From Acidimicrobiia bacterium (GTDB lineage Bacteria; Actinomycetota; Acidimicrobiia; Spongiisociales; DATADW01), in the NCBI GenBank assembly GCA_036258335.1, contig DATADW010000083.1, positions 1 to 61,199 on the forward strand: 61,199 nt of DNA, in the 5' to 3' direction. Positions within the stretch are counted from its first letter, which is position 1; every line of letters starts with the position of its first letter. Positions 2,894 to 61,199 of this stretch are shown piece by piece. A program made the position numbers and the translations under genes. The notes below the pieces were generated by a model. That model saw nothing but the letters and a program-made list of their open reading frames with translations, was not told where the DNA came from and made no database searches.

Positions 2894-4699
2894 ATGGCGA
2901 CCTTGATCGATCATCTCTCCGACTCTCGACTGGCCGCGTTGGGTGCTAAGGCGATTCTCGCTGGGCTGGACCGGTACACGGACCGCTTCCGGATCATCAC
3001 GCGCCGGGCTCGTATCCGCTTTGACGAGCGCGACTGGGGTGGGATGCAGTCGGATGCTGCCGATCGGCTCGACCTATACGGTCGCGTGGTCTCGTCGGTT
3101 GTCGCCGATCTCCACCATCTTCTCACCGACCGTGTCGAGGATCGATCGCTGTGGGCGGCTATGAAGGCGGTCTACTCCGGGCTGATCGAGGGCCGCGACG
3201 ACTGGGACCAGGCGGAGACCTTCTTCAACTCCGCCACGCGCAAGATCTTCACCACGGTCGGCGTTGACCCTCGGATCGAGTTCGTCGACACCGACTTCGA
3301 CACACCGCCGACCCCACCGCGGCACCCGCTCCATTCAGCATTTGGGCGGAGGTCGTCGACCAGCGAGCTGATCGAGGAGGTCCTCGCATCGCAGCCACTT
3401 GGCCTCTCCGACCCGAGGACCGAGTCGCAGCGCGTCGCCCAGCGGATCGACGGTCACCTGCGCGACATTGGTGCCCTGCAGAGCGTGGAGCGGGCGGAGA
3501 TGATCGACGCCGTCTTCTACCGCGGCCAGAGCGCCCACCTCATAGGCCGGCTGTTCAGCGGCTCGCACCTGGTCCCAATCGTGTTGGTGGTGCTCCATCC
3601 TCCGGGCGGCCCCGTGGTCGATGCGGTGCTGCTCACCGAGAACCAGGTGAGCATCCTCTTCAGCTTCACCAGGGCCTACTTCCATGTTGACGTCGACCGC
3701 CCCCACGACCTCGTCGACTTCCTTCGCACCCTCATGCCGCGCAAGCGTCTCGCCGAGCTGTACACATCGCTCGGGTACCACAAGCACGGCAAGACCGTTC
3801 TCTACCGGGAGTTGATCCATCACCTCGCCAGGTCGGGGGAGTTGTTCGAGCGAGCGCGGGGTGCAGAGGGCCTTGTGATGACCGTGTTCACGATGCCGGG
3901 GTTCGACATCGTGTTCAAGGTGATCAACGACACGTTTCCCTCGCCAAAGACGACGACGCCTGACCAGGTCCGGGGCCGCTACCGGCTCGTATTCCGCCAC
4001 GACCGGGTCGGAAGATTGGTCGACGCCCAGGAGTTCGAACTGCTCGAGTTCGAACGGGATCGGTTCTCCTCCGAGCTTCTCGACAAACTCGAGGGCGATT
4101 GCACTTCGGCGGTGGCGGTCGAACCAAACCGCGTCGTGATACGTCACGCCTATGTGGAGCGGAGAGTCATCCCGCTCGATATCTATGTCCGCGAGGCCGA
4201 CCCGGCGGCGGCGACCGCGGCGATGCTCGACTACGGAACCTGTATCGAGGAGCTGGCCGCCGCTGGGATATTCCCGGGCGACCTGCTGCTCAAGAACTTC
4301 GGGGTGACCCGGCACGGACGGGTCGTCTTCTACGACTACGACGAGTTGACCCGTCTGGAGGACTGCCGTTTCAGGACATTGCCCGGGCCTCGCTCGCCGG
4401 AGGAGGAGATGTCCGCTGAACCGTGGTTTGCGGTTGGGCCCAACGACATCTTCCCCGAAGAGTTCCGGCGCTTCGTGGGGATCGATGGTGGCCCCCGCGC
4501 CGCATTCGAGGATGCCCACCACCGGCTCTTCGACCCCGCATGGTGGTGCTCGATGCAGGATCGCGTCCGCCGCGGCGAGTTGATCCCGGTGTTTCCATAC
4601 GAGTCCGCAGCCAGGTTGGAAAGAGGAGACGGCAGACGGCAGACGGCAGACGACAGCAGGAGGGTGGACAGCGGAGAGCCGTCAGATACCGGGCGCTGA
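2894..4699 (+). CDS. aceK: bifunctional isocitrate dehydrogenase kinase/phosphatase
   Basis: Collinear with E. coli AceK along its length. Examples: GLVMTVFTMPGFDIVFKVINDTFPSPK, HDRVGRLVDAQEF, FPGDLLLKNFGVTRHGRVVFYDYDE, AEPWFAVGPNDIFPEEFR. Confidence 0.9.
   Translation: MATLIDHLSDSRLAALGAKAILAGLDRYTDRFRIITRRARIRFDERDWGGMQSDAADRLDLYGRVVSSVVADLHHLLTDRVEDRSLWAAMKAVYSGLIEGRDDWDQAETFFNSATRKIFTTVGVDPRIEFVDTDFDTPPTPPRHPLHSAFGRRSSTSELIEEVLASQPLGLSDPRTESQRVAQRIDGHLRDIGALQSVERAEMIDAVFYRGQSAHLIGRLFSGSHLVPIVLVVLHPPGGPVVDAVLLTENQVSILFSFTRAYFHVDVDRPHDLVDFLRTLMPRKRLAELYTSLGYHKHGKTVLYRELIHHLARSGELFERARGAEGLVMTVFTMPGFDIVFKVINDTFPSPKTTTPDQVRGRYRLVFRHDRVGRLVDAQEFELLEFERDRFSSELLDKLEGDCTSAVAVEPNRVVIRHAYVERRVIPLDIYVREADPAAATAAMLDYGTCIEELAAAGIFPGDLLLKNFGVTRHGRVVFYDYDELTRLEDCRFRTLPGPRSPEEEMSAEPWFAVGPNDIFPEEFRRFVGIDGGPRAAFEDAHHRLFDPAWWCSMQDRVRRGELIPVFPYESAARLERGDGRRQTADDSRRVDSGEPSDTGR
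4628..4655 (+). repeat. heptamer tandem array (gacggca x3 plus gacgaca)
   Basis: Read directly. It lies inside the last 70 nt of aceK and encodes the RRQTADGRRQTADD-like tail. Confidence 0.85.
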
Positions 4700-4711
4700 G
4701 TCTCCCTCGGC

Positions 4712-5275
4712 CTACGTTTTCCGCGAGGCGCGCCTGCGGCGGAAAGCCGCGACGTTCTCACGGGTGCCACAGGTGACGGAGCAGTGGCGACGCGACCGGT
4801 TGCGCGAGGTGTCCACGTAAACATCGGCGCAGGTCTCGGATGAGCAGACCCCGAGCCGGTCGATCCCATAGTCGCAAACCACGGTGGCCAGACCCATCGC
4901 GGTGATCGCCCCGAGCCAGCGGCCGACCCCCCGCCGGGTCGACTCGAAATGGAAGTGGGGATCGACGCCGGTGTGAGCGCTCACCCGGGGCACCGCCCCG
5001 GATGCGCTCAGCTCTCGGTTCAGCTCGGCGACGGCAAGCTCGACATCATCGGTCTCGAATAGGCGGCGGATCCCGGCGCGGAGCCGCCGCACCGCGGTCA
5101 GGTCACGTTCGTTCAGATCGACCCAATCCTCCCGCCATTCTTTTGGAACCTCGCCGAGGAAAGACCGAAGTCCATCGAGATCGCCGAGCTGGTCCTCACC
5201 GGTGATGGGATCGAGCGTGTTCGCCAGCGCTACAGCCAACGCAACCGGCGAGTCGGTGTAATGCGAGAAATCCAT
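4712..5275 (-). CDS. CGNR zinc-finger (ABATE-domain) putative transcription regulator
   Basis: C-terminal CSSETCADVYVDTSRNRSRRHCSVTCGTRENVAAFRRR is the zf-CGNR signature. Confidence 0.85.
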   Translation of the reverse strand: MDFSHYTDSPVALAVALANTLDPITGEDQLGDLDGLRSFLGEVPKEWREDWVDLNERDLTAVRRLRAGIRRLFETDDVELAVAELNRELSASGAVPRVSAHTGVDPHFHFESTRRGVGRWLGAITAMGLATVVCDYGIDRLGVCSSETCADVYVDTSRNRSRRHCSVTCGTRENVAAFRRRRASRKT

Positions 5276-5330
5276 TTCGGACCTTACAGGTTCGTGCTAA
5301 AGTGTAATGAGCCTACAGCCGAATATCCAT

Positions 5331-5360
5331 TACGTCACCAATACGTCACCAATACGTCAC
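5331..5360 (+). promoter_or_regulatory. three direct TACGTCAC repeats at 11-bp phasing (candidate operator)
   Basis: TACGTCAC at 5331-5338, 5342-5349 and 5353-5360. They sit in a locally AT-richer divergent intergenic region next to the CGNR regulator start. Confidence 0.4.
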
Positions 5361-5393
5361 GAAGCCGTTCTATGGCGAGATAGGAGCAATCCC

Positions 5394-5599: not shown

Positions 5600-8317
5600 T
5601 TGGCCGATTATCCGTCCGACTATGAGTTCGACATCGTGCTGCGGGACGGTGCGGTTGCACGCTTCCGCCCGCTCCGCCCAGAAGATGCTCCGCTGCTGCT
5701 GGCGCTTTTCGAGCACACCGGTGCTCAGTCGCGCTACTACCGATTCTTCCGCGCCAAGGACGAGTTGACCCCCGAGGAACTCGAGCACTTCACCACGGTC
5801 GACTACGTGGATCGGATGGCGTTCGGCGTCTTTGAAGACGGGGAGATGGTGGGGGTCGGGCGGTACGACCGGGCGGAAGATGAGCCGGCCGCTGAGGTCG
5901 CCTTCTTGGTGGCCGATGCACAGCAGGGCCGCGGCATAGGAACCGCCCTCCTTCAGATGCTGGGTAGCTACGGGCGGGCCCACGGGGTGTCCGAGTTCAA
6001 GGCATTCGTGCTCCCCGAGAACCTGCAGATGATGCGGGTGTTCCGCTCCTCGGGGTATGAGTTGAGCCGCACTCTGGAGGAGGGCGTCTACTCGTTGGAC
6101 TTCCCCACCGCGGTCTCGGTCGGGAGCCGGGCCGCCGAGGAGGAGAGGGAAAAGCGGGCGGTGGCTGCCTCGATCCTCCCCATCTTCTACCCGCGGTCTA
6201 TCGCCGTGGTCGGTGCCAGCCGTACCCCCGGCTCGATAGGAGCGCGCCTGTTCTCCAATCTGGTGGGCTCGGGGTTCACCGGGGCGGTATACCCGGTCAA
6301 CCCAAAGGCGGGGGTGGTCCACTCGGTTCGGGCCTACCCATCGATCCTCGATATCCCCGACCCGGTCGACCTCGCCTTCATCGTGGTGCCTGCCCACTTC
6401 GCCCTCGATGCGGTGAGGGAGTGCGCAGAGAAGCGCGTCAAGGGTTTGGTTGTCATCTCCGCCGGCTTCTCCGAGGTGCCCGGTGGGGAGGATCTCGAGC
6501 GCCAGATCCTCGAGGTCGCCCGCTCGGCGGGGATGCGGATGGTTGGCCCCAACTGCATGGGGGTGCTCAACACCGATCCGGCGGTGCAGATGAACGGGAC
6601 GTTCGCCCCGGTCTACCCGCCTAGGGGCAACGTAGCCATGTCGAGTCAGTCGGGGGCGCTCGGGATCGCCATCCTCGACTACGCCCGGCAGAACAACATC
6701 GGGATCTCGACCTTCATCTCGGTCGGCAACAAGGCCGACGTCTCGGGTAACGACTTGCTTCTGGCATGGGAGGAGGACCCGGCCACCGATGTGATCGTCC
6801 TCTATCTGGAGTCATTCGGGAACCCGCGCCGCTTCGCCCGTCTGGCTCGCCGCATCGCCCGCAAGAAGCCGATCGTGGCGGTCAAGGCGGGCCGGACCAG
6901 CGCAGGCACCCGGGCAGCATCGAGCCACACCGGCGCCCTCGCCAGCCTCGATGTCGCCGTCGAGGCGTTGTTCAACCAGGCCGGCGTGATCCGCACCACC
7001 ACACTCGAGGAGCTGTTCGGGGTGGCTTCGCTGCTGGCCAACCAGCCGGTGCCCAAAGGCAGGCGGGTCGGCGTCATTACCAACGCCGGCGGACCGGGAA
7101 TCCTCGCTGCCGATGCGCTCGAGTCCGAGGAGCTCGAGCTTCCCGAGCTGTCCGAGGGCTTGCGGGCAAAGCTGGCCGAGGCTCTGTCGGCGGAAGCCTC
7201 GACGCGCAACCCCATCGACCTCATCGCCTCCGCCGGCCCTGACCACTACCGGCACTGCATCGAGACGCTGATCGAGAGCGACGAGGTCGACGCCGTCATG
7301 GTGATCTACATACCGACCACGCCCGATGGTTTGCAGGGCGTGGCTGCTGCGGTGCGCGAGATGGCGACGGCGCACCACGGGGAGAAGACGTTCGTCACCG
7401 TGTTCATGGAAAGCGAACACTCTGCCGCGCTGTTCGAGGACGCCCGGGTCCCCACCTTCGTCTTCCCCGAGGCGGCAGCGATTGCACTGAGCCGTGCGGC
7501 CCGGTATGGAGAGTGGCTCACCCGGCCGGAGGGGACCATTCCCACGCTGGCGGGGCTCGATCCCGGCGCCGCCCGCCGCGTGGTGGCCGCGGCGGTGGGA
7601 CGGCTCGGAGACGAAGGTGGCTGGCTCGAGCCCGGCGAAGTCGACGAGGTACTCGCCGCGTTCGGTATCCGGCTCCCGGTCAGCCGGGTTGTGGTCACCG
7701 CTGACGAGGCCGCGGTGGCCGCCGTCGATATCGGCGGGAAGGTGGTGTTGAAGGTGATCGCCCCATCCGCCCTCCATAAGAGCGATGTGGGCGGTGTCCT
7801 TCTCGACGTCGAGGGGGAGGGAGCGGTTCGCGCCGGCTTCGATCATCTCATGAGTGTGGTGGGCGATCCGGAAGGAGTCCTCGTCCAGGAGATGGTCGCG
7901 GGCGGCCACGAGGTGCTGATCGGCGTGACCGAGGATCCTTCATTCGGACCGTTGCTCGTCTTCGGTCTGGGCGGGGTCTACGTCGAGTTGCTCAAGGATG
8001 TGGCGGTGCGGATCGCCCCGATCACCGACCGCGACGCCGCCGAGATGGTGGGGGAGATCAAAACGGCACGGTTGCTCCAAGGTCGGTATCGCAACTTCCC
8101 CCCCGGTGATCTCGACGCACTCCAAGAGGCTTTGCTTCGGGTGTCGGCGTTGGTGGAGGCGGTCCCCGAGCTGGTAGAGATGGACATGAACCCGGTCAAG
8201 GTGCTCCTGCCGGGTGAGGGGGTGCGGGTGGTAGACGCCAGGATCAAGGTCCGGCCGCTCAAACCGGGCTGGTCGCCGGAGCTACTCGACATCCCCGGTC
8301 TGGCCGGGCACCGCTAA
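5600..8317 (+). CDS. patA: protein lysine acetyltransferase, PatA-type (N-terminal GNAT fused to NDP-forming acyl-CoA synthetase-like and ATP-grasp domains)
   Basis: GNAT motif A (QQGRGIGTALL) is N-terminal. It is followed by a CoA-binding region (SIAVVGASRTPGSIG), succinyl-CoA-synthetase-like flavodoxin domains and a C-terminal ATP-grasp region. Confidence 0.8.
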   Translation: MADYPSDYEFDIVLRDGAVARFRPLRPEDAPLLLALFEHTGAQSRYYRFFRAKDELTPEELEHFTTVDYVDRMAFGVFEDGEMVGVGRYDRAEDEPAAEVAFLVADAQQGRGIGTALLQMLGSYGRAHGVSEFKAFVLPENLQMMRVFRSSGYELSRTLEEGVYSLDFPTAVSVGSRAAEEEREKRAVAASILPIFYPRSIAVVGASRTPGSIGARLFSNLVGSGFTGAVYPVNPKAGVVHSVRAYPSILDIPDPVDLAFIVVPAHFALDAVRECAEKRVKGLVVISAGFSEVPGGEDLERQILEVARSAGMRMVGPNCMGVLNTDPAVQMNGTFAPVYPPRGNVAMSSQSGALGIAILDYARQNNIGISTFISVGNKADVSGNDLLLAWEEDPATDVIVLYLESFGNPRRFARLARRIARKKPIVAVKAGRTSAGTRAASSHTGALASLDVAVEALFNQAGVIRTTTLEELFGVASLLANQPVPKGRRVGVITNAGGPGILAADALESEELELPELSEGLRAKLAEALSAEASTRNPIDLIASAGPDHYRHCIETLIESDEVDAVMVIYIPTTPDGLQGVAAAVREMATAHHGEKTFVTVFMESEHSAALFEDARVPTFVFPEAAAIALSRAARYGEWLTRPEGTIPTLAGLDPGAARRVVAAAVGRLGDEGGWLEPGEVDEVLAAFGIRLPVSRVVVTADEAAVAAVDIGGKVVLKVIAPSALHKSDVGGVLLDVEGEGAVRAGFDHLMSVVGDPEGVLVQEMVAGGHEVLIGVTEDPSFGPLLVFGLGGVYVELLKDVAVRIAPITDRDAAEMVGEIKTARLLQGRYRNFPPGDLDALQEALLRVSALVEAVPELVEMDMNPVKVLLPGEGVRVVDARIKVRPLKPGWSPELLDIPGLAGHR

Positions 8318-13271: not shown

Positions 13272-13275
13272 ACCG

Positions 13276-13941
13276 ATGCGGGTCGGCGATGTGATGACCA
13301 CCAAGGTGCTGACTGTCACCGGCGGTGAGAGCCTCAAGGGAGCCGCCCGCATCATGGTCGAGGCGGGGGTCAGCGGGCTGCCGGTGCTGGATGATTCGGG
13401 TGCTTTGGTGGGGATCATCACCGAGGCCGATTTCGTCAGACGCCAGGCTCGGGAGGATCGGGGCCGCTTGCTAAACGTCGTCCTCCAGCGACATGACCCG
13501 GTGCCTGGGGCCACCACGGTGGGACAGGTGATGACCCCGTCGCCCATCGTCATTTACCCCGAGGCCACGGTGACCGAAGCAGCTCGGGTGATGCTCGCTC
13601 ACAAGGTGAAGCGCCTCCCCGTGGTGGACGACGTCGGCAAGCTCGTGGGGGTCGTAAGCAGGGCTGATCTGATGAGCGCCTTCACCATCGCCGACGATGA
13701 GTTGGCCGACACGGTGCGAAACGACGTCCTCAAGCGGGTCCTGCTACTCGACCCGGCTTCGCTCGATGTGGTGGTCGAGGACGGCGTCGCCTCGATCAGC
13801 GGCGAGGTGCCCCGCCGCAGCGATGCCCGCATCCTCGAGGAGCTGACCCGAAGGCTGGACGGAATCGTCCACGTCGAAACCGACCTGACCTGGGAGCTCG
13901 ACGACACCAGAACCGATCGGCCAGGACCGAACCTGCCTTGA
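13276..13941 (+). CDS. CBS-pair plus BON domain protein
   Basis: Two CBS modules (VMTTKVLTV...GLPVLD and VMTPSPIVI...RLPVVD) and a C-terminal BON-like segment (VASISGEVPRRSDARILEELTRRLDGIVHVE). Confidence 0.8.
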   Translation: MRVGDVMTTKVLTVTGGESLKGAARIMVEAGVSGLPVLDDSGALVGIITEADFVRRQAREDRGRLLNVVLQRHDPVPGATTVGQVMTPSPIVIYPEATVTEAARVMLAHKVKRLPVVDDVGKLVGVVSRADLMSAFTIADDELADTVRNDVLKRVLLLDPASLDVVVEDGVASISGEVPRRSDARILEELTRRLDGIVHVETDLTWELDDTRTDRPGPNLP

Positions 13942-13987
13942 GCCCGTCGGGCGGCGAATCCCTCGCACCCGATTACCCTGCCCGGCC

Positions 13988-14602
13988 ATGGCTCGACCGC
14001 GCGGCAGGGCACTCGAACAGCAGCGTGCGGCCAAGGAGGAGGCCCGAGAACAAACGCGCCGCCACACTTCGCGGCGCAACCTGTGGATCGGGATCGGCGT
14101 CGCCGTCGCTCTCATCGGCGGGCTGGTCGCCTTCGTCCTCACCCGCCGCGACCCCCTAGAGGGCGCCGACATAACGGCCTACCCGGATCTCGGCGTCGCG
14201 CATCTGGCTGCGGGAGACCCGGCTCCCGAGTACAACTCGAACCCACCCACCAGCGGGCCCCATGCCCTACAGCCGGCAGCCTGCGGCATCTACCGCGAGC
14301 CAGTCAGCGACACCCAGCAGGTCCACACGCTGGAGCATGGCGCCATCATCGTCCAGTACGACCCGACCCTCCCCGAGGAGGACGTAGTGCGGCTCGAGGA
14401 GTTGGCCCGATCCATCGGCGACCAGATCCTGGTGGCCCCTCGGTCGGGGATGCCGGCACCGGTGGCAGTCACCTCGTGGGCAACGGTCATGCTGCTCGAC
14501 GAGGTCGACGAGGACATCATCAACGCCTTCCACCTCCGTTACGAGGACCAGAGCCCCGAGCCACTCGCTGTCTGCCCGCTTCAGGTGGACGAGGCGGCTT
14601 GA
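13988..14602 (+). CDS. DUF3105 domain membrane-anchored protein
   Basis: N-terminal TM segment, then the PPTSGPH and HTLEHGAIIVQY motifs typical of DUF3105. Confidence 0.7.
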   Translation: MARPRGRALEQQRAAKEEAREQTRRHTSRRNLWIGIGVAVALIGGLVAFVLTRRDPLEGADITAYPDLGVAHLAAGDPAPEYNSNPPTSGPHALQPAACGIYREPVSDTQQVHTLEHGAIIVQYDPTLPEEDVVRLEELARSIGDQILVAPRSGMPAPVAVTSWATVMLLDEVDEDIINAFHLRYEDQSPEPLAVCPLQVDEAA

Positions 14603-15555: not shown

Positions 15556-17046
15556 ATGCCCGGCATCCATTTCGACGATCTCACCTTCCGATATTCGTCC
15601 GCTGTCGATCTCTTTGACCACCTCACCGTGCATCTCGGTTCGGGGTGGACCGGTGTCGTGGGTGAGAACGGGACCGGCAAGAGCACGCTGCTCCGCCTCG
15701 CCGCCGCCGAGCTGAGACCGTCGTCTGGGACGGTGGTCATCGATCCACCGGGTGCCAGCCTCGTCTTGTGTCCGCAAACGGTCGATGACCTCACCCAGCA
15801 GGTGGAGGATTTCGCCGCCTCGTGGGATGGCGCCGACTCGGCTCTCCGCAGCCGGCTCGACCTCGACCCCGCCGACCTCGGGCGCTGGACGACGCTATCC
15901 CCCGGCGAACGAAAGAGGTGGCAGGTGGGCGCGGCCCTGATGGTCAGACCCGAGGTCCTGCTGGTCGACGAGCCGACCAACCACCTCGATGCCGAAACGC
16001 GGCGGGTGCTGGTCAGCGCCCTTGCCGGGTTTGTGGGGGCAGGGATGGTGGTGTCGCACGACCGCGCCCTGCTCGATAGGTTGTGCCGACGGATCCTCAG
16101 AGTCGCTATCGGCGATGTCCGACTGTGGAACGGTGACTACACGACGGCGAGCCGCGGTTGGGAGTCCGATGCGGCCGAGCAACGCACCGAGCTCGAAGCG
16201 CTTCGGACCCAGGAGCGGAGGATGGCACGCGAACTGGCCGACCGACGACGGGTGCTGGAGGAAAAGCAGGCGGTTCGCCGCCGGCAGATGCGCCAAGCCG
16301 CCGGTGACCATGATGTGACCTCGGCCGTGGCCACCTACCGCGCCGCCGCGGCCCAACGAGCGGCGTCCCGAGGGGCGAGCGTGCTGCGACGCAAACTGGA
16401 CAAGGCCGAGGACCGGCGGCGGTCGATCGCTCCTCCGTCGGAGCACGGGGGGCGGGTGTCCTTCGCATACCAGCCGCCTGCCCGGCGGCGTCTGCTCACG
16501 CATCAGGGCACGCTGCTCGCAGGGGACCAGGTCATAATCGAGGACGCTTCGGTGGTGGTCGAGCGCAACGACCGGATCCGGCTGTCGGGACGGAACGGCG
16601 CGGGGAAATCCACCCTGTTGCGAGCCCTTGTCGACGAGTCGGACCTGCCGCCGGCGCTGCTGCTCTTTCTCCCACAGGAGCTCGATGAATCCGGCCGGGC
16701 GCAAGCGCGGCGCGCCTTGCTGGGTTTGGAGCCGGGGGAGCGGGGCGAGGTGCTGGCGATCGTTGGGTCCTTAGGTACCGATCCGGAGCGGGTGCTGGCG
16801 ACCGAACTGCCGTCACCAGGAGAGGCGCGCAAGCTGTCGCTGGCGCTGGGACTGGCCCGCCAGGTCTGGTGCCTTGTCCTCGACGAGCCGACCAACCACC
16901 TCGACCTTCCTTCTGTGGAGAGGATGGAGGTGGCTCTGACCGGTTTTCCCGGTGCGGTTGTACTGGTTACCCACGATGACTGGCTTGCGGCAGCGGTGAC
17001 CAATAGCGAGTGGCACATCGACCGCGGCACTGTCACCGTCGTATGA
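15556..17046 (+). CDS. ABC-F family ATPase (two ABC domains, no TM domain)
   Basis: AAGGAGG lies upstream. Two Walker A motifs (GENGTGKST, GRNGAGKST), two signature/Walker B sets (LSPGERKRW...LLVDEPTNHLD and PSPGEARKL...LVLDEPTNHLD) and an Arg/Glu-rich interdomain linker. Confidence 0.85.
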   Translation: MPGIHFDDLTFRYSSAVDLFDHLTVHLGSGWTGVVGENGTGKSTLLRLAAAELRPSSGTVVIDPPGASLVLCPQTVDDLTQQVEDFAASWDGADSALRSRLDLDPADLGRWTTLSPGERKRWQVGAALMVRPEVLLVDEPTNHLDAETRRVLVSALAGFVGAGMVVSHDRALLDRLCRRILRVAIGDVRLWNGDYTTASRGWESDAAEQRTELEALRTQERRMARELADRRRVLEEKQAVRRRQMRQAAGDHDVTSAVATYRAAAAQRAASRGASVLRRKLDKAEDRRRSIAPPSEHGGRVSFAYQPPARRRLLTHQGTLLAGDQVIIEDASVVVERNDRIRLSGRNGAGKSTLLRALVDESDLPPALLLFLPQELDESGRAQARRALLGLEPGERGEVLAIVGSLGTDPERVLATELPSPGEARKLSLALGLARQVWCLVLDEPTNHLDLPSVERMEVALTGFPGAVVLVTHDDWLAAAVTNSEWHIDRGTVTVV

Positions 17047-17504
17047 GCATGTCACCGCCCATGCCAGCCGATAGTGAGGAAGGGGACCTTCGGGTGAGTC
17101 GAGAGATCATCATCCGTCGTCACGAGCTGGATGAGCGGTTTGACCCCTCAGGTGGTCCCGGTGGGCAGCACGCCAACCGATCGAACACCAGGGTGGAGCT
17201 GTCCTTCGACCTCGGTTCGAGCACCTCGCTCCCGCCCGAGGCCAAGCGACGGGCGTTGCGGCTGCTGGCGGATCGGTTCCCCGACGGTGTCGTGAGCATC
17301 ACCGCTGCCGACACCCGCTCCCAGTGGCGCAACCGGAGGATCGCACGAGCGCGGCTGGCAGACCTCCTCGCCGACGCCATCGCCGCCCCGCCGCCGCCCC
17401 GCCGCCCCACGCGGCCCACCGCCGCCTCCCGGCGGAGGAGGCTCGATGAGAAGCGGATGCGCGCCGAGGTGAAGCGGTTGCGGCGCCGTCCCGATGTCGA
17501 ATGA
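17043..17504 (+). CDS. arfB: alternative ribosome-rescue factor ArfB (peptidyl-tRNA hydrolase, GGQ)
   Basis: GPGGQHANRSNTRVEL plus a basic C-terminal tail (RRPTRPTAASRRRRLDEKRMRAEVKRLRRR), as in E. coli YaeJ. ATGA overlap with the ABC-F stop. Confidence 0.85.
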   Translation: MSMSPPMPADSEEGDLRVSREIIIRRHELDERFDPSGGPGGQHANRSNTRVELSFDLGSSTSLPPEAKRRALRLLADRFPDGVVSITAADTRSQWRNRRIARARLADLLADAIAAPPPPRRPTRPTAASRRRRLDEKRMRAEVKRLRRRPDVE

Positions 17505-19135
17505 CTCCCCAAGACGAGACCGTCGCCGCGGTGCCGCCACCCGAGCACTGGTGGCAGGGGGCGGTTGTCTACCAGATCTACGTCCGCAGCTTCGCCGACT
17601 CCGACGGCGACGGGATCGGCGACCTGGAAGGGATACGGTCGAGGCTCGATCATCTGACCGAGACGCTCGGGGTCGACGCCATATGGATCACCCCTTTCTT
17701 CCCCTCCCCAATGCGCGACTTCGGCTACGACGTTGCCGACTACTGCGATGTCGACCCGCTGTTTGGGGACCTGGCCCGTTTCGACTCACTTCTCTCCGAT
17801 TGTCACCAGCGCGGGCTCAGGGTGATGATCGACTGGGTACCCAACCACACATCGGACCTTCACCCCTGGTTTGTGGAGTCACGGTCCTCGCGGGATAACC
17901 CCAAGCGAGATTGGTACGTCTGGCGGGACCCCGCAGATGACGGTTCACCGCCCAACAACTGGCTCGCCATGTTCGGAGGCTCATCGTGGGAATGGGACGA
18001 GCGGACGCGGCAGTACTACCTGCACTCGTTTCTCCCCGAGCAGCCCGATCTCGACTGGCGCAACCCCGAGGTCGAGTCGGCCATGCTCGATAGCCTTCGC
18101 TTCTGGTTGGACCGGGGTGTCGATGGCGTGCGCATCGATGTGGCGCACTACCTGATGAAAGACCCGGGTCTGACCGACAATCCGCCTGCTGAGGGCCCGA
18201 CGGATTATCGGCCGCTGGGCGAGCCCGATAGCCAGATCCACATCAACGACAGGGGCCATCCTGACATCCACTCACTTTTCCGGCGGATCCGCGGTGTGCT
18301 CGATTCCTATCCCGATGACCGGTTCGCCATCGCCGAGATCCACGAGTCCGACTGGGAGACCTGGGCCTCGTACTACCAGCCGCCGTCGCTCGACAGCATC
18401 CACATGCCCTTCAACTTCTCGCTGCTCTACGCCCCCTGGGACGCCGAGGAGCTTCGGCAGAGCATCGAAGCCGCCGAGGCGGCGGTGCCCGAGGGCGCCT
18501 GGCCCAATCATGTGCTGGGGAACCACGACGAGGCCAGGGTTGCCTCCCGGTTCGGCGAGCGGCGTGCGGGTTTGGCCGCCATCCTGCTGCTCACCCTACG
18601 GGGCACGGTCACTATGTACTACGGCGACGAGATAGGAATGCCCGAGACCGCCATCCCCCCCGGTGAGATTCGCGATCCTCAGGGGATCAGGCTGGGAACC
18701 CCGACACGCGACGGTTGCCGCACCCCGATGCAATGGAGCGATCAACCGCACGCCGGGTTCTCCCCCCCGGAGGCGCCGGGGACATGGCTCCCGCTGTCGA
18801 CCGACTGGAAGCAGCGCAATGTGGACAGCCAGCTCGACGACCCGGGTTCGCTGCTCCAGCTCTACCACCGGCTGCTGGCTGCCCGCCGTTCCCCGTCGCT
18901 GCGCCGAGGTGCGTTCCGTTCGCTTCCCGCGCCACCGGGTTGCCTGGTCTATGAGAGGTCCGCTCCTGGGTCGGCTGCCGTGGTGGTAGCGCTCAACCTG
19001 GGTGGAGATGTGACCGCAATCGACTTGCCGGCAGGGACGGTGCTCGTCGCCACCGACCCGGGCGCCGAGGGAAAGCCTGTGAGCGGGCCAATCGAGCTGG
19101 CGGGGAACGAGGGGGTCGTCATAGAGCTCACGTGA
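17501..19135 (+). CDS. GH13 alpha-glucosidase / oligo-1,6-glucosidase-like
   Basis: WWQGAVVYQIYVRSFADSDGDGIGDL, VPNHTSDLHPWF and GVDGVRIDVAHY. ATGA overlap with the arfB stop. Confidence 0.85.
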   Translation: MTPQDETVAAVPPPEHWWQGAVVYQIYVRSFADSDGDGIGDLEGIRSRLDHLTETLGVDAIWITPFFPSPMRDFGYDVADYCDVDPLFGDLARFDSLLSDCHQRGLRVMIDWVPNHTSDLHPWFVESRSSRDNPKRDWYVWRDPADDGSPPNNWLAMFGGSSWEWDERTRQYYLHSFLPEQPDLDWRNPEVESAMLDSLRFWLDRGVDGVRIDVAHYLMKDPGLTDNPPAEGPTDYRPLGEPDSQIHINDRGHPDIHSLFRRIRGVLDSYPDDRFAIAEIHESDWETWASYYQPPSLDSIHMPFNFSLLYAPWDAEELRQSIEAAEAAVPEGAWPNHVLGNHDEARVASRFGERRAGLAAILLLTLRGTVTMYYGDEIGMPETAIPPGEIRDPQGIRLGTPTRDGCRTPMQWSDQPHAGFSPPEAPGTWLPLSTDWKQRNVDSQLDDPGSLLQLYHRLLAARRSPSLRRGAFRSLPAPPGCLVYERSAPGSAAVVVALNLGGDVTAIDLPAGTVLVATDPGAEGKPVSGPIELAGNEGVVIELT

Positions 19136-25571: not shown

Positions 25572-25585
25572 GACGGCAGACGGTT
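25572..25585 (+). repeat. heptamer array (gacggca gacggtt)
   Basis: Read directly. cagacggcagacgg (25570-25583) is a perfect inverted copy of ccgtctgccgtctg at 26166-26179. Confidence 0.8.
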
Positions 25586-25601
25586 CTTACACCACCCCTA
25601 A

Positions 25602-25764
25602 GCTCGCTTCGCTCGGGATCGGCTCCCCCTCCCGGTGACGGAGGGGGTTGGGGGGAGGCTGATTGCCGCCGCTCGCCCCAGTCACCCGCTCCGCTCGCTC
25701 CGCTGGCGCTTCCCCCTCACCGGGGGAGGCACTGGTCACCCCCTCCGCAGCGGGTAGGGGGGCC
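25602..25764 (+). repeat. duplicated G-tract/C-tract hairpin module (REP-like element or structured RNA)
   Basis: The leader GCTCGCTYCGCTSGG occurs twice, each time followed by a C-tract/G-tract hairpin. CCCCCTCC (25625-32) pairs with GGAGGGGG (25640-47). gcttccccc (25708-16) pairs with gggggaggc (25722-30). ccccc (25739-43) pairs with ggggg (25757-61). Confidence 0.5.
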
Positions 25765-26161: not shown

Positions 26162-26187
26162 CTCCCGTCTGCCGTCTGACGTCTCGG
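26162..26187 (-). repeat. heptamer array, inverted orientation (gtctgcc gtctgac gtctcgg)
   Basis: Read directly. It fills the 31-nt gap between two convergent stops. Confidence 0.8.
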
Positions 26188-32863: not shown

Positions 32864-33167
32864 TCTCGACCCTCTCGAAACGCCGTTTCCCGCTCCACCT
32901 TGGCGGGCTTCCACACCGCCCGGGTGCAGGCTGCTGCGGCCCGGATCAATCTCCGTCACGGGGATTTCGAGGGCGCATGGGCAACCATCGTGGACGCCGA
33001 GGCGGCGCTCGGGTGGGTCTCGACCGGGACACAAACGGAGAGCAGCGGATCTGTTGGCTGCGATGGGCGTGGTGTTATCCGAGGGGGATGCTCCTGCTGA
33101 CAGCGAGCGAACGGCGGGAGCACGGTGAGGCGATCCTCACTGATGACGTTCGACGGCCGTCTGTGCT

Positions 33168-44733: not shown

Positions 44734-44801
44734 GTCGCCGATGTCTAGTCGGTGCCGGTGGATCGATGTCGGCAATACGGGGTGAGAAGAATGAAGGCAC
44801 G

Positions 44802-45749
44802 ATGACGGCTACCAACGATCGGGGCGTTACTCCCAAGGGCGAACTGGTGTGGATCGCCGGCGGGGAGTTCACCATGGGGTCCGACCGGCACTATCCGGAG
44901 GAGCGGCCGGCGCGCCGCGTATTGGTCGACGGGTTCTGGATCGACCGCTACCAGGTGACGAACGATGACTTCGCCGACTTCGTCGCCGACACCGGTCATG
45001 TCACCGTCGCCGAGCGCCCCCCCGATGCCGCTGATTACCCGGGCGCCATCCCCGAGCTACTCGTGGCCGCTTCGATGGTCTTCGTCAATCCCGCGCGCAA
45101 GGTGGACCTGCGCAACCACTACAACTGGTGGGCATGGGTTCCCGGCGCCGATTGGCGTCATCCCCAGGGAGCGGACAGCGCTATCGAGGACAAGGGCGAC
45201 CACCCAGTGGTCCATGTCGCCTGGGACGACGTCGTCGCCTACGCCGCCTGGGCCGACAAGGAGCTTCCAACCGAGGCAGAGTGGGAGTTCGCCAGCCGGG
45301 GCGGGCTCGATGGCGCCGAGTACGCCTGGGGTGATGAGCTCAATCCGGACGATCGATGGATGGCCAACACATGGCAAGGTGATTTTCCGGTGGTCAACGA
45401 GGGACTCGACGGTTTCGAGGGGACCGCCCCGGTGGGATCGTTTCCTGCAAACGGATATGGGTTGTTCGACATGACCGGAAACGTCTGGGAGTGGACCGCA
45501 GACTGGTATCAGGTGATGCGGGAACCGAAGGCAAGCTGTTGCGTGCCCCGCAATCCTCGAGGCGGGGAAGTGGCGCAGAGCCACGACCCGGACATGGCCG
45601 ACATCCCGATCCCGCGCAAGGTGATCAAGGGAGGTTCCCACCTCTGTGCCCCCAACTACTGCCGGAGATACCGGCCGGCGGCGCGCATGGCACAGGCGGT
45701 CGACACCTCGACCAGTCACCTCGGCTTCCGCCTGATCTCGCGCGCCTGA
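44802..45749 (+). CDS. formylglycine-generating enzyme (SUMF1/FGE-sulfatase domain)
   Basis: WIDRYQVTNDDF, GNVWEWTADWY and KGGSHLCAPNYCRRYRPAAR. Confidence 0.85.
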   Translation: MTATNDRGVTPKGELVWIAGGEFTMGSDRHYPEERPARRVLVDGFWIDRYQVTNDDFADFVADTGHVTVAERPPDAADYPGAIPELLVAASMVFVNPARKVDLRNHYNWWAWVPGADWRHPQGADSAIEDKGDHPVVHVAWDDVVAYAAWADKELPTEAEWEFASRGGLDGAEYAWGDELNPDDRWMANTWQGDFPVVNEGLDGFEGTAPVGSFPANGYGLFDMTGNVWEWTADWYQVMREPKASCCVPRNPRGGEVAQSHDPDMADIPIPRKVIKGGSHLCAPNYCRRYRPAARMAQAVDTSTSHLGFRLISRA

Positions 45750-45750
45750 G

Positions 45751-45778
45751 ACCGGAAGGCGGAAGGCGAAAGACGGAA
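45751..45778 (+). repeat. heptamer array, forward (accggaa ggcggaa ggcgaaa gacggaa)
   Basis: Read directly. It starts 2 nt after the FGE stop. Confidence 0.8.
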
Positions 45779-45845
45779 GTCAACCCGTTGGGTCACCGAC
45801 GGTTCAGAGCCCCCCAGCGCAATCTGGACGAGTCCCCCCGTCATG

Positions 45846-45887
45846 GTCTGCCGTCTGCCGTCTCCCGTCTGCCGTCTCCCGTCTGCA
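45846..45887 (-). repeat. heptamer array, inverted, 6 units (gtctgcc/gtctccc)
   Basis: Read directly. It is separated from the forward array by a 67-bp spacer. Confidence 0.85.
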
Positions 45888-45990
45888 GGATTATGGTTTC
45901 GTCAGTGCGCTTCGGCTTGAATGAGCGTGAGCGACCCGCCAAAGGGACCGTGTCGACGCGGAGTCGCTGTCACCAGCGACGGGAGGACCC

Positions 45991-50841: not shown

Positions 50842-51026
50842 GGTCGCTCTCCATTGGTGGAGTTGCTCGGCTCTTCCTGCTCCTGTTCTCGTCGTGCAGC
50901 ATCGGCCCGCGCTCGGCGCTCGGCGCGGCGCAAAAGCCAAATGATCGCCAGCGCCGGCAGGGCGAACATGAGGATCTCGTCCCAGCCACCCTGATGGAGC
51001 AGGACCACCGGCAATCGGGAGATCAC
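50838..51026 (-). CDS. small membrane protein (62 aa)
   Basis: GTG 51026 overlaps the upstream stop and the stop overlaps the mogA start. The product is [52 protein letters not shown]. Confidence 0.4.
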
Positions 51027-52366
51027 GCGAGAGCGGTGACGGTCATGACGGCGAGGGTGAGCGTCACTATGAGGAGAAGCATCCCATACTCTCGCCGTAC
51101 CGTGTTGCCCTGGGGATCCAGCAACGCCATCCGCTGGTGCACCACCGCGAGCGACGCGATGCCGCCGCCGACGAAGCCCGCCGCCTGGAACCACCACAGG
51201 GTGGCAGGGGTGGCGAAGAAGGCGATCTTGTGATCGGCCGTGCCGAACAGGTCCCAGCCCATGCCAAGCGGGTCGCTGATCGTCGACAGGAGAAGCTGCC
51301 CCTCGAAGAGGAGGACGGGGAGGTGGTGGCCGAGCGTCGCCGCCAGGGCCAAAGGCGCCAGCGCCGGGGCAAAGACCCTAGTCATCGTCGAGGCTGGGAA
51401 CTCTCTGCGGGCGGCAGAGCGGGATGCGAGATATAGCGCCACCGACACGAGAGCCGACATGGTCAACAACCCCAGCGTCCCAAGTGCGACTGAGCCTGCG
51501 GCGTTGCCCATCATCCCCAACCACCACGGGGTGAAGGAGAACCCATCCCACAACACCGCTCCGATCATCACCGCGACGAATCCGCCAAGACCCGGTGGCG
51601 ATGCCATGCGTGTCAGCGGGTCGAGCCACCCCCTCTTTCGCCCGCCGCTCTCGTCCTTGCCGAGCGGTGAGATGCCCCCGGCCATCGCGTTGTAGGTGGT
51701 AAAGGGGTCGGCGATCCGAAGGGCTCTCTCTCGGCCGGCGACCGCAGCCAACCCGAGCAGCCCAACGGTGAGTCCTACGGCCCCCCACCCAAGGGCCGCC
51801 GCCATGCCCCTGAGCGGAGACACCACCTGTAACCACACAAAGACCAGGTACCCGATGGCAGCCGGCCAAACGCCGAGACGCTCCATTTTGGGCCGGGTCG
51901 CCGCCTCGCCGAGACCGGTCCATTGGGCAAGCGCACGCCACGGGTTGAGCGACGCGTAGAGGTCACCGAACACGATCTCCGCCAGCGGCAGGCCGAGCCA
52001 GAAGAGCACATTGACCAGCACCGGGGCAAGGTTGCGCGACGGGTTGTCGACACCGGCGATCCCGGCGACGACGACCAGAACCAGCCCGCCAACCCCGATG
52101 ATTTCAGCCGCCCGGGACGGCCGCTCCATCGGCCGCTCGAGGCTCTCGGCGGTGACCTCCTCCGGGCGGTCTTGTGGTTGTCGGGTAGCCACCACGGCGA
52201 AAGCGACCACCAGGATCAGTCCTCCCGCGAATAGAAAGACCTCCAGCGGCAGAGGCAGATCGCCCTGCGGCCCCATCCCGTGCGCCGCGGTCGCTGCCGG
52301 GACGAGGAGCAACGCGAGCAACAGCCCACCGGAGGTCCACCACCGGCGGATCGATCCCCCGGTCAC
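51023..52366 (-). CDS. polytopic membrane protein, function unknown
   Basis: About 10 hydrophobic segments. The track ORF N-terminus (to 52492) merely translates the heptamer array, so GTG 52366 ([30 protein letters not shown]) was chosen. The start is uncertain. Confidence 0.6.
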
Positions 52367-52403
52367 GGGGAGGGAGGGTACTGCCGCCTGCGTTGCAGGC
52401 GGA

Positions 52404-52487
52404 GGCGGAAGACGGAAGGCGGAAGACGGAAGACCGAAGACGGAAGACGGAAGCAAGGGGACGGCGGACGGCAGACGGCCGACGGCA
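52404..52487 (+). repeat. heptamer tandem array, 12 units
   Basis: ggcggaa gacggaa ggcggaa gacggaa gaccgaa gacggaa gacggaa gcaaggg gacggcg gacggca gacggcc gacggca. It is preceded by a perfect hairpin ccgcctgc-gtt-gcaggcgg at 52385-52403. Confidence 0.9.
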
Positions 52488-52562
52488 GCCAAACCAACTC
52501 CGCTTACTCGGAGGGGAAGGGCTCACCGACGCTGGGCGTGTCACGGCGCGACAATTGAGACG

Positions 52563-56736: not shown

Positions 56737-56754
56737 TTAGAAGAAGTATTACTT

Positions 56755-57624: not shown

Positions 57625-58067
57625 TGGAAGCGATGGGTCCGCTCGAGCCGGCAATAGAAGTGGCGATCCTCGCCGACGCTGTCCAGGCCGCAGCCGGAAA
57701 GCTCTACGTGCTTGGCGGCGGTTGGGACACCCTGCTCGTGCCGCGGTTCCCGGCGCGGCACAGCATCGGGATCGGAGTCAAGGTCCGTGTGCCATGGACG
57801 CTCACCGGTGAGGACTTCACCCTCGCTGTCGAGCTCCAGGACGAGGACGGACGACCTGTGCCCAATGCAGCCAGGCTCCGCCATGCCTTTCGTGCCGGGC
57901 GACCCAACCATCACCCCGAGGGGATCGACGTGAGCGTGGTGCGGGCCCTCACCTTCGCCAACGTGCCCCTCCCCGCTCCAGGGGGATATGCCTTCTCGGT
58001 CCTCCTCGGCGACATCGAGCGGGCACGGCTCAGTTTCCGGGTGATCGCCAGGCCGAAGAGAAGCTGA
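57624..58067 (+). CDS. hypothetical protein
   Basis: AILADAVQAAAGKLYVLGGGWDTLLVPRFPARHSIGIGVKVRVPW...PAPGGYAFSVLLGD. I recall the family name as DUF6941 but am unsure. The start may be ATG 57633. Confidence 0.55.
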   Translation: MEAMGPLEPAIEVAILADAVQAAAGKLYVLGGGWDTLLVPRFPARHSIGIGVKVRVPWTLTGEDFTLAVELQDEDGRPVPNAARLRHAFRAGRPNHHPEGIDVSVVRALTFANVPLPAPGGYAFSVLLGDIERARLSFRVIARPKRS

Positions 58068-58068
58068 G

Positions 58069-58089
58069 GACGGAAGGCCGAAGACGAAA
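58069..58089 (+). repeat. heptamer array (gacggaa ggccgaa gacgaaa)
   Basis: Read directly. It runs into the AGGAGGG Shine-Dalgarno of the ABC ATPase gene. Confidence 0.75.
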
Positions 58090-58097
58090 GGAGGGCC

Positions 58098-59824: not shown

Positions 59825-59826
59825 GA

Positions 59827-60312
59827 TCACAGGTACACGCCGGGATAGGACCTCTGCTCTTCCTCGGTGTCCGCCGGCCCCTGCAGCGCCCTCTGCTGAT
59901 GTAGTTGCTGGAGTTGCGCCTGTGCCGCCGCCTGTTGGCTCCACAGACTCGCCTGGATCCCGTGGAAGACACCCTCCAACCAACCGACCAACTGGGCCTG
60001 GGCCACCCGCAGTTCCGACTCGCTCGGCACCTCGTTACGAATCGGGATGAACATCTCGTCGAATTCGTCGAGCAGCTCCGGAGAGAGGATCTCTCTCAGC
60101 TCCGTCAGCGTCCGCTCGTGTATCTCGAGGAGCCGGCGGCGCCCGGCGTCGTCGAGCGGTGCCTGACGGACCTCGTCGAGCATCGCCCGTGTCATCGAGG
60201 CGATCCGGATCAGCTTGGTCGGCTGGCTTACCGGAGGGGCGGAGCCGCGCTGGGCAGGAGCCGGCACCTCCACCGCGTCTGGCGTTTCGGCGTTCTGAGC
60301 GTCGTCGGGCAT
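59827..60312 (-). CDS. bpa: bacterial proteasome activator Bpa/PafE
   Basis: KLIRIASMTRAMLDEVRQAPLD and RVAQAQLVGWLEGVFHGIQ match the family. The C-terminal GVYL sits in place of the mycobacterial GQYL 20S-docking motif. Confidence 0.85.
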   Translation of the reverse strand: MPDDAQNAETPDAVEVPAPAQRGSAPPVSQPTKLIRIASMTRAMLDEVRQAPLDDAGRRRLLEIHERTLTELREILSPELLDEFDEMFIPIRNEVPSESELRVAQAQLVGWLEGVFHGIQASLWSQQAAAQAQLQQLHQQRALQGPADTEEEQRSYPGVYL

Positions 60313-60608
60313 GCTCCTCCTCGTCCCGGATGAGGGTAGGTGCTGCGCCCTCACTGGAGCGCCAACGGTGCGGCTGTGCACGCCGACTCATTGGAAAGTG
60401 TTGCGCTATGATGTAGACTATCGCCGAGTACCTCCGGAGGATTGGTCCCATCGGGTTCCACCTCCTCCGGGGCACCGTGAACCGGACGGTGGATGGCCGC
60501 TCATAGCGGTGGAAGATGCGATGTGGCCGGGGGATGGGGGGTCCGCATTGCTGGGCCGTCCGCGGCGTGCATGGCACGCGGGGACTGGAGGAAGGACGCA
60601 GAATCGAG

Positions 60609-60848
60609 ATGGATGCCAACGATTACCCGCCGATCCTCGACGCAGCCCACGTCTCAGAGCTGCTCGGGATGAACGTGCAGATGGTCCGCAAGTACGCCCG
60701 CGAGGGCAGGATCCCGGCATACCGTCTCCCTGGAGGTCGGACGTTCCGCTTCTTCCGTGACGAGATCTTCGGGTTCCTCCGCGAGCACCCGGTCGTCGAA
60801 AGCGTGGACGGCACGGCCAAGCTTCAAACCGCCTCCGAAACCGGCTGA
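60609..60848 (+). CDS. excisionase/MerR-like HTH DNA-binding protein
   Basis: ILDAAHVSELLGMNVQMVRKYAREGRIPAYRLPGGRTFRFFRDEI fits the HTH_17 pattern. Confidence 0.7.
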   Translation: MDANDYPPILDAAHVSELLGMNVQMVRKYAREGRIPAYRLPGGRTFRFFRDEIFGFLREHPVVESVDGTAKLQTASETG

Positions 60849-60859
60849 CCCGGGAACGC

Positions 60860-61199
60860 ATGCCGCCCGGGAGCTGGGAGACCCACCCCGATCTGCGGAA
60901 GCTCCGACGTGAGACCGATCGGGAGTTCCGTGAGGAGGCAGCTGCCGAGGAGGCGGATGCCGCCCAACTCCTGCTGCGCAACCGCACGCTGGCCGACGCC
61001 GCCTTCGAATCCATGGTGCGCGGCGACGAGGTCACCCTGGCCGCCGGTGGGCGTGAGTGGGGCGGTCGGCTAGTCGAGGCCGCGGGTGATCTGACCGTGG
61101 TCGACACGGGCTCCCAACACGTATCCATCAGTTTGTCGGCGCTGCGCTGGTTGCGTATCGATGCAAGGGGACGGGGAGACGGCCACCGCAGCGGCGGGT
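60860..61199 (+). CDS. hypothetical protein (5' part, runs off the window)
   Basis: Not in the track because it has no stop. ATG 60860 opens MPPGSWETHPDLRKLRRETDREFREEAAAEEADAAQLLLRNRTLADAAFESMVRGDEVTLAAGG. The opposing 236-aa ORF is an Arg/Ser/Pro-rich shadow. Confidence 0.45.
   Translation, partial: MPPGSWETHPDLRKLRRETDREFREEAAAEEADAAQLLLRNRTLADAAFESMVRGDEVTLAAGGREWGGRLVEAAGDLTVVDTGSQHVSISLSALRWLRIDARGRGDGHRSGG
61163..61184 (+). repeat. heptamer array (gcaaggg gacgggg a gacggcc)
   Basis: Read directly. It resembles the gcaaggg gacggcg gacggca gacggcc segment at 52453-52480. Confidence 0.7.

Follow-up and report, generated by a model that had tools for sequence, protein, structure and literature searches.

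Contig DATADW010000083.1 of an uncultured Acidimicrobiia bacterium was analysed from position 1 to position 61,199, a stretch hereafter called the window, to which all coordinates refer and whose GC content is 66%. Scattered along the window are tandem arrays of a 7-bp unit, AGACGGN (GACGGNA in another register), located at the boundaries of genes that are functionally unrelated to one another: aceK, an imelysin gene, an FGE-sulfatase gene, a tadA-like gene and an ATP-binding cassette (ABC) transporter. We accepted arrays at seven loci, all of them outside conserved coding sequence. An earlier reading of the sequence, referred to below as the original prediction, had described a dispersed family of about 37 units at gene boundaries, and both the family and its approximate size are borne out, the accepted units numbering around 34. 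Seven of the nine items that it listed hold, and two do not. The putative array at 61163-61184 contains at most two imperfect units inside a coding sequence and is missed by a search allowing one mismatch. The second, the palindrome GACGGCCGTC, lies at 33152-33161 instead of 33146-33155 and is of a kind expected by chance, since 0.38 occurrences are expected and 33 of 100 shuffled sequences contain at least one.

Array 1 (4625-4655, + strand) consists of GGA followed by three GACGGCA units and one GACGACA, that is, four units. It begins exactly at the end of the conserved AceK sequence (...ARL) and is translated as part of a non-conserved AceK tail of 25 residues, whose stop codon is at 4697-4699, at a convergent junction with a CGNR/ABATE gene (4712-5275, - strand). 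Array 2 (25572-25585, + strand) comprises two units, AGACGGC and AGACGGT, and is placed upstream of a minus-strand thioesterase gene, 23 nt from its ATG (25549), on the non-coding strand of that gene. Array 3 (26163-26183, G-rich on the - strand; GACGTCA, GACGGCA and GACGGGA, three units) begins 4 nt past the TAG (26190-26188) of the imelysin gene, within a convergent gap of 31 nt, and a single inverted unit, GGCCGTCC, is found ∼15 nt downstream of it. Array 4 (45751-45779, + strand) begins 1 nt past the TGA of the FGE-sulfatase gene (44766-45749) and is made of four degenerate units of the form GRCSGRA (GACCGGA, AGGCGGA, AGGCGAA and AGACGGA, followed by AG). Array 5 (45846-45887, G-rich on the - strand), in which six units alternate between AGACGGG and AGACGGC, is located ∼100 nt upstream of a DUF7144 gene (45991). 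Arrays 4 and 5 are the left and right arms of an inverted pair, 67 nt apart.

The sixth locus is divided by a 6-nt break into array 6a (52397-52453, + strand), with ∼8 units of the types GGCGGAA, GACGGAA and GACCGAA, and array 6b (52460-52487, + strand), with ∼4 units of a different variant (GACGGCG, GACGGCA, GACGGCC and GACGGCA). It begins ∼31-38 nt from the GTG (52366) of a minus-strand gene, a start that we read from the alignment with a related contig (L205), and its array 6a ends ∼110 nt upstream of the ATG (52563) of the tadA-like gene. Finally, array 7 (58068-58092, + strand; three degenerate units, GGACGGA, AGGCCGA and AGACGAA, followed by AGG) begins 1 nt past a stop codon and occupies the entire spacer between the TGA of a DUF6941 gene (58065-58067) and the Shine-Dalgarno (SD) sequence and GTG (58098) of an ABC-transporter ATPase gene. 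Tandem Repeats Finder (TRF) combined with a pattern search assigned to these arrays a period of 7, between 2 and 8 copies, 85-95% matches and no indels. Array sizes (4, 2, 3, 4, 6, 8+4 and 3 units) reveal no preference for four units in this small sample, and GGG runs are confined to alternate units of 45846-45887 and a single unit at 26163. The 7-mer is the only part common to the sites, whose flanks are unrelated. Pfam matches to zf-CGNR/ABATE and DUF7144 are consistent with an actinobacterial origin of the contig. Homologues of AceK and of inositol-phosphate synthase (Ino1) are assigned to the Acidimicrobiia in their sources, while two proteins of the window had no match when looked up by exact sequence.

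A common placement can be recognised when the arrays are read along their G-rich strand, because each of them then adjoins an open reading frame (ORF) on its 5′ side. Four begin 0-4 nt past a stop codon or past the natural end of aceK, and two sit 23-38 nt upstream of start codons on the opposite strand. With the aceK array scored as coding, six of the seven loci are non-coding, which gives a binomial p of ∼3e-4 by our own estimate, calculated on a non-coding background of 19% that derives from an under-called gene map. Note that stop-free arrays distort gene calls. The aceK ORF (2894-4699) gains 25 non-conserved residues in this way, as do its counterparts in two relatives (L121 and L122), and the longest-ORF start of the ORF 51023-52492, a TTG at 52492, spans the whole 12-unit array, while the alignment with relatives leads to the GTG at 52366.

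We then compared the window with sequences of the same composition. Searching for two consecutive units with at most one mismatch yielded 19 matches, against 0.79 ± 0.88 expected from dinucleotide shuffles, and 0 of 100 shuffles attained this number; the comparison with a shuffled control, which the original prediction had proposed genome-wide, thus shows within the window an excess over what composition provides. In contrast, the lone heptamer occurs at chance level (58 observed versus 54.9 ± 7.5 expected). Because the single heptamer is not enriched, the signal resides in the tandem arrangement and not in the heptamer itself. A scan of periods from 4 to 12, performed with an X-drop score of our own rather than with TRF, showed that solely period 7 yields arrays of three or more units in the window; TRF additionally calls an 18-bp and an 11-bp repeat, each with more than three copies. 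Per 100 kb, the window has 8.2 arrays and its close relatives have 9.8, compared to 1.0, approximately the chance level, in distant relatives within the Actinomycetota (878 kb, 65% GC). The latter control was composed of contigs unbiased with respect to arrays, retrieved from metagenome contigs with an Ino1 query, a scan that found only relatives of ∼60% identity and no orthologous spacers. The heptamer arrays are real and far above chance.

Orthologous junctions were compared at seven syntenic loci, drawn from at least four further samples. Three contigs (L121-L123) cover the end of aceK with 82-84% nucleotide identity, and four correspond to the 45-61 kb part of the window, with identities of 97% (L204), 84% (L205) and 79-80% (L206 and L207). 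At the 3′ end of aceK, the array is present in three of the four genomes: the window carries four units with N = C, L121 four copies of GACGGCA and L122 five copies of GRCGGAA, while in L123 there is none and aceK terminates directly after ARL. Between the DUF6941 stop codon and the start of the ABC-transporter gene, an array of 3-5 units is found in all five genomes, the window contributing three degenerate units. Following the FGE-sulfatase stop codon, all four genomes have units, four in the window and 1-3 in L204, L205 and L207. Its inverted partner, array 5, occurs in three of four genomes, with six units in the window, 6-7 uniform TGCCGTC units in L204, ∼6 in L205 and none in L207, and the 67-nt spacer of the pair is kept only in the 97% identical strain. 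Upstream of tadA, the 12 units of the window are opposed to 0 in L204, despite its 97% identity, to a degenerate array in L205 and to absence in L206 and L207.

Every orthologous array departs from its counterpart in copy number or in unit variant. In addition, each array is homogenised towards its own unit, which is not the same in all orthologues (GACGGCA for the window and L121 versus GRCGGAA for L122), and homogenisation can be seen at 45846, where the GGG and GGC units that alternate in the window are replaced by uniform units in L204. As judged from these alignments, the arrays behave as microsatellites do, in that position is inherited whereas length and unit change far more rapidly than the flanking sequence. 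The copy-number variation between related strains that the original prediction had suggested looking for is therefore present, in agreement with its proposal of slippage-prone tracts. Likewise, four other samples, assembled independently, contain orthologous arrays, which rules out an assembly artefact, a possibility that it had raised as well.

To describe the arrays at the RNA level, we used ViennaRNA, in which G-quadruplexes were not modelled. Direct arrays are unstructured: the RNA of the aceK site gave z = -0.4 relative to shuffled sequences and that of the array upstream of tadA gave z = +0.84, with no structure. At 26163, the array and the single inverted unit downstream form a short hairpin (z = -2.1). 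The inverted pair (45740-45900) folds into one long stem of -65.2 kcal/mol (z = -1.9), in line with the idea that inverted arrays could act as a hairpin. As a terminator, this stem would have an interior of 67 nt and only AGGAUUAUGGUUUC after it. A consensus scan for promoters and terminators, itself uninformative, placed a terminator at no array, and a scan of the whole window against Rfam at gathering thresholds returned no matches.

The same unit was then sought in one genome per species, where (GACGGNA)3 was present in at least 120 loci. The phyla represented among the matches listed, to which the counts from genomes given below also refer, include Gemmatimonadota (∼1/3), Chloroflexota, Acidobacteriota, Planctomycetota, Bacteroidota, Actinomycetota and others, and several metagenome-assembled genomes carry multiple loci. 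Units with N = A, C, G and T were all found, and single arrays are mostly homogeneous. The same loci contained ∼100 further arrays of period 7, built from ∼80 other units, and other periods were rare. In viral contigs, the collection on which control heptamers of the same composition were scanned, 53 stretches carried (GACGGNA)3, compared with at least 120, 60, 33 and 29 for the controls. Since the viral controls and the ∼80 other units in the same loci behave alike, the habit of forming arrays is generic to heptamers and the unit is not special; the favoured unit is lineage-dependent. We accordingly dropped the idea that AGACGGN is a universal motif, the controls being equally common or commoner in viral contigs.

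The placement rule also extends to other phyla. Among 137 arrays, using same-strand ORFs of at least 100 codons, the G-rich strand starts between -5 and +10 nt from a stop codon in 35 cases and the C-rich strand in 6. This bias persists with units free of stop codons (13 of 27 arrays with N = A and 9 of 45 with N = G), and so it does not arise from the TAG within N = T units. An unrelated purine-rich unit used as a control, GGCAGNA, whose arrays of three or more units occupy at least 120 viral stretches and are commoner than the target unit, showed the same orientation, with the G-rich strand at the stop codon in 28 cases versus 1 among the matches listed (viral contigs L261-L380). With respect to downstream starts within 20 nt, the C-rich strand was somewhat more frequent (15 versus 8). 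Many arrays elsewhere run straight into their own reverse complement, generating perfect hairpins.

Some phage contigs are rich in such arrays. The 59.9-kb contig IMGVR_UViG_3300025888_000275 (L211, L228, L230, L236 and L258) is one with at least five separate GACGGNA arrays of three or more units, further loci of this kind are L218, L240 and L252, and viral contigs L215, L221, L231 and L249 contain inverted pairs 60-135 nt apart. Phages thus have the heptamer-array habit as well, presumably that of their hosts. In other matches (L021, L090, L101, L107, L048 and L093), arrays of different heptamers abut, for example GGTAGAG/GGTAGAT beside AGACGGC, or GGGGAAC beside AGACGGG, which, from the sequences, looks like mutation of a unit followed by its expansion within one tract. 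One of these (L090) also carries many runs of a unit with a period of 8 nt, GGTGAATC.

The original prediction had not found the arrays explained by the known categories that it named. That nothing known explains them does not hold, because they fit the heptanucleotide class of long simple sequence repeats (LSSRs) of prokaryotes, including its positional rule (PMC4679880, PMC4692102). As far as PMC4679880 outlines their work, Mrazek, Guo and Shah (2007) described LSSRs with units of 5-11 nt in scattered prokaryotic lineages, with heptamers as the commonest unit, and proposed polymerase slippage as their cause. The arrays of the window resemble the LSSRs outlined there in being heptanucleotide, sporadic and lineage-specific, and mostly intergenic; as far as that outline goes, neither their unit nor their host lineage is among those described. 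A closer description is that of Rehm et al. (2015, PLoS One), who reported GGGAATC and GGGGA(C/T)T repeats in Xanthomonas and Nostoc at conserved loci, with variable length and sequence and in inverted pairs, unconnected with mobile elements or gene classes and without an identified function (PMC4692102). [quoted passage not shown] They differ in that AGACGGN mostly offers a GG tract, so that the argument built on GGG and four-unit G-quadruplexes is not transferable, and in that the host belongs to an uncultured Acidimicrobiia lineage.

Other heptamer families share part of these features. TAACTGA direct repeats were reported by MacGregor (2015) in marine Beggiatoaceae, cyanobacteria and Bacteroidetes (PMC4679880). 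In common with them and with the short tandemly repeated repetitive (STRR) heptamers of cyanobacteria, the arrays in the window are dispersed and intergenic, in a group where copies number 2-6 (up to 43), and their unit is found in unrelated phyla; moreover, as for TAACTGA, the number of arrays is uncorrelated with the total count of the heptamer. Yet TAACTGA repeats are placed just upstream of starts, are AT-rich and have built-in stops, whereas the arrays described here are GC-rich and in most cases come after stop codons. The genome of Geobacter metallireducens harbours 49 copies of GGGACCG x4 elements (PMC2700814), also GC-rich heptamer arrays at many sites, annotated only as putative regulatory; unlike ours, they have a fixed four-unit form and are also intragenic. 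A literature search on strings of the AGACGGN repeat matched only unrelated primers and found no relevant paper.

Several other classes of repeats were considered. Arrays of the CRISPR type, which the original prediction had already discarded, are ruled out, the units being 7 nt long and contiguous with no spacers. The same is true of repetitive extragenic palindromes (REPs), bacterial interspersed mosaic elements (BIMEs) and miniature inverted-repeat transposable elements (MITEs), since the shared part is only a 7-mer, the flanks are unrelated and there is a single inverted pair. Enterobacterial REP/BIME are alike in being extragenic and dispersed, with positions at 3′ ends and in spacers between cistrons, and in the hairpin formed by the inverted pair, but REPs are imperfect palindromes of 20-40 nt with a dedicated transposase, while here the repeat is a non-palindromic tandem 7-mer with no associated transposase. 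The DNA uptake sequence (DUS) of Neisseria, which we take to be GCCGTCTGAA, an exact 10-12-mer that occurs dispersed in Neisseriaceae, singly or in inverted pairs, resembles the C-rich strand of N = C arrays, where GCCGTCTG matches at 8 of 10 positions; the full motif is lacking and the host is an acidimicrobial bacterium, and we regard the resemblance as a coincidence. Arrays of SD-like sites were rejected on the grounds that only units with N = G or A contain GGAG/GGA and that Bacteroidota carry arrays too, and sites for CsrA, A(N)GGA, because only units with N = A fit; CsrA is not known from Actinobacteria. Footprints of transposon target-site duplication were also rejected, with no element nearby. 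Complementarity of GACGGG to the CCCGUC of the 16S decoding site, which we judged speculative, was considered, as were read-through traps formed by the rare codons AGA-CGG.

Our preferred explanation, which we consider probable though by a modest degree of confidence, is that the arrays are lineage-specific heptanucleotide microsatellites of the LSSR kind, driven by slippage and tolerated in untranslated spacers. They belong to a known, functionally unexplained kind of repeat; the unit AGACGGN and the Acidimicrobiia host are new, the category is not. Slipped-strand mispairing at replication would make arrays arise, grow, shrink and homogenise, and they would survive only where a change of 7 nt in length is harmless, that is, in untranslated spacers and in the dispensable 3′ tail of a coding sequence. 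The purine- and G-rich strand adjoins the 5′-side ORF, in most cases supplying the bases of the mRNA that come first, untranslated, past the stop codon, where the RNA of a direct array is a spacer that is stop-free, structure-free and poor in C, and would as such be tolerated or even slightly beneficial. In the operon of the DUF6941 and ABC genes, the array makes up all of the intercistronic spacer as far as the SD sequence, and the inverted pair at 45751-45887 is predicted to form a long hairpin between genes, which might terminate the upstream transcript or protect it. A sequence-specific trans-acting factor would not be required. Slippage as the generator, and any effect exerted through RNA, are what we infer.

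Several observations weigh against this explanation. Slippage alone fails to explain the orientation bias and the adjacency to stop codons, and some selection or a strand-asymmetric process must act. A unit of the AGACGGA type is kept at the same junction across genomes of ∼80% identity and its core recurs in several phyla, a persistence that could reflect a sequence-specific constraint rather than neutrality. The hairpin of the inverted pair only marginally beats shuffled sequences and, with its 67-nt interior, has no clear U-tract. The control scans, moreover, come from viral contigs and not from the bacterial genome collection. Regarding the bias at stop codons, transcribed DNA might mutate in a strand-asymmetric way, or untranslated RNA that is rich in C might be selected against, for instance because it permits Rho loading.

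That last possibility leads to an alternative in which the arrays are directional Rho insulators. A C-poor array in the sense direction would keep Rho off the RNA that follows the stop codon, and the antisense (NCCGUCU)n would resemble a Rho utilization (rut) site and stop antisense or read-in transcripts. Rut sites are unstructured, C-rich and G-poor, and direct arrays are similarly unstructured. The orientation at the upstream stop codon (35 versus 6, and 28 versus 1 for the other purine-rich heptamer, among the matches listed), the placement at the first untranslated bases and the presence of arrays at the convergent junctions aceK/CGNR and imelysin agree with this proposal, and a widely conserved factor could account for one rule across many phyla. 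We nevertheless hold it to be improbable: it is wholly inferential, arrays are dispensable between near-identical strains, N = C units increase the C content in the sense direction, and the period of 7 is left without explanation. A broader version, in which purine-rich heptamer arrays, AGACGGN being one dialect among them, would constitute a cross-phylum, orientation-specific signal after stop codons, read by a conserved machine and maintained by selection in bacteria and phages, seems to us unlikely; blocking of Rho in sense with rut activity in antisense, marking of RNA 3′-ends or ribosome release are examples of what such a machine might do. The sense orientation of the G-rich strand after stop codons has also been considered under a different proposal, namely that G-rich RNA, or the non-template DNA, past an ORF forms G-quadruplexes or R-loops, by which transcription would be paused or terminated or 3′ exonucleases blocked. 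The G-quadruplex-forming heptamer repeats of Xanthomonas and Nostoc follow the same positional rule (PMC4692102), and arrays with N = G elsewhere (43 among the matches listed) have the canonical GGG-N4-GGG pattern. We find the proposal doubtful all the same. Most units in the window have GG and not GGG (GACGGCA, GACGGAA and GGCGGAA), reaching ∼0.4-0.6 per base in our own G4Hunter-style arithmetic versus a usual cut-off of ∼1.2; G-quadruplex formation, which the original prediction had described as weak, would thus be weak for most of them. Furthermore, a preference for four units is missing (2, 3, 3, 4, 4, 6 and 8+4), orthologues swap N among C, A and G while retaining the array, and N = C arrays, the poorest G-quadruplex formers, are as common as others among the matches listed.

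Binding sites for a protein, in the manner of operators or centromeres, would account for contiguous 7-bp units in direct and inverted orientation, for instance through a ribbon-helix-helix protein on contiguous heptads, or at the RNA level through binders of the S1/Csp type, by analogy with the RNA-binding proteins proposed for TAACTGA repeats (MacGregor 2015, PMC4679880). The AGACGG core is indeed kept at orthologous junctions of genomes that are ∼80% identical. Such sites are nonetheless quite improbable in our judgement, given that no candidate gene goes with the arrays, whose neighbours are functionally unrelated, that strains gain or lack them with no compensating changes, that unit variants are degenerate at several positions, and that dozens of similarly behaving heptamers would need dozens of cognate proteins. 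Least credible of all is that the arrays are contingency loci, as the original prediction had suggested, in which copy number would toggle genes by frameshift or promoter spacing. Copy number is hypervariable, one array lies in the aceK reading frame and another in a divergent promoter region. But the aceK array is past the conserved C-terminus, where a frameshift alters a junk tail only; most arrays trail stop codons, and the neighbours are housekeeping or metabolic genes and not surface or restriction genes; and the 12-unit array of the promoter region is absent in L204 (97% identity), L206 and L207 and degenerate in L205. Rehm et al. (2015) concluded likewise for GGGNATC (PMC4692102). We found no support for either phase variation or a dedicated binding protein.

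Other features of the window were recorded along with the arrays. The 18-bp tandem repeat called by TRF, GGCGGTGGCGGGGGTACG x3.6 with 97% matches (2726-2790), is just upstream of aceK; with a length that is a multiple of 3, it lies inside the ORF 2429-2863 (+ strand) and would encode a Gly-rich repeat, and L121 and L122 have a small gene at the matching position. The 11-bp repeats, three direct copies of CCAATACGTCA at 5327-5360, are spaced one helical turn apart between the divergent genes for the CGNR/ABATE regulator (4712-5275, - strand) and an acetyltransferase/acyl-CoA synthetase (5600-8317, + strand), and from their sequence and arrangement they look like an operator for the adjoining regulator. 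Hairpins with C5/G5 arms are found in 25600-25720 and 52340-52400, for example CCCCCTCC-N7-GGAGGGGG (25625-25647), together with CTCCGCTCGCTCCGCT motifs. In L204, an insert of ∼250 nt rich in C5/G5 hairpins and CTCCGCTCGCTCCGCT motifs (13761-14070) replaces the 12-unit array of the window. On sequence grounds, these motifs may represent a second, REP-like repeat family of the lineage. A C-rich low-complexity tract composed of CGC, CCGCCGCC and CGCCCCCCGC (17369-17431; TRF periods of 3, 8 and 10) is situated near the boundary of the ORFs 17010-17504 and 17501-19135. Lastly, the inositol-3-phosphate synthase of L204 (10001-10930) is called at 309 aa, versus ∼420-440 elsewhere, which could be due to a frameshift, a pseudogene or an assembly error.

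Heptanucleotide families have been reported for more than 15 years in cyanobacteria, Xanthomonas, Burkholderia, Geobacter and Beggiatoaceae with no accepted function, and to these the present analysis adds the Acidimicrobiia and a new unit. On the practical side, the arrays offer hypervariable markers with which strains can be typed in metagenomes, and they are also a source of errors in gene calls, as illustrated by the spurious C-terminal extension of aceK and the over-extended start of the ORF 51023-52492. The most useful outcome is the rule that the G-rich strand is sense and adjacent to the stop codon, a rule common to unrelated units, many phyla and phage contigs. That it is shared suggests one underlying cause, which could be strand-asymmetric mutation or else selection acting on the untranslated RNA just past the stop codon.

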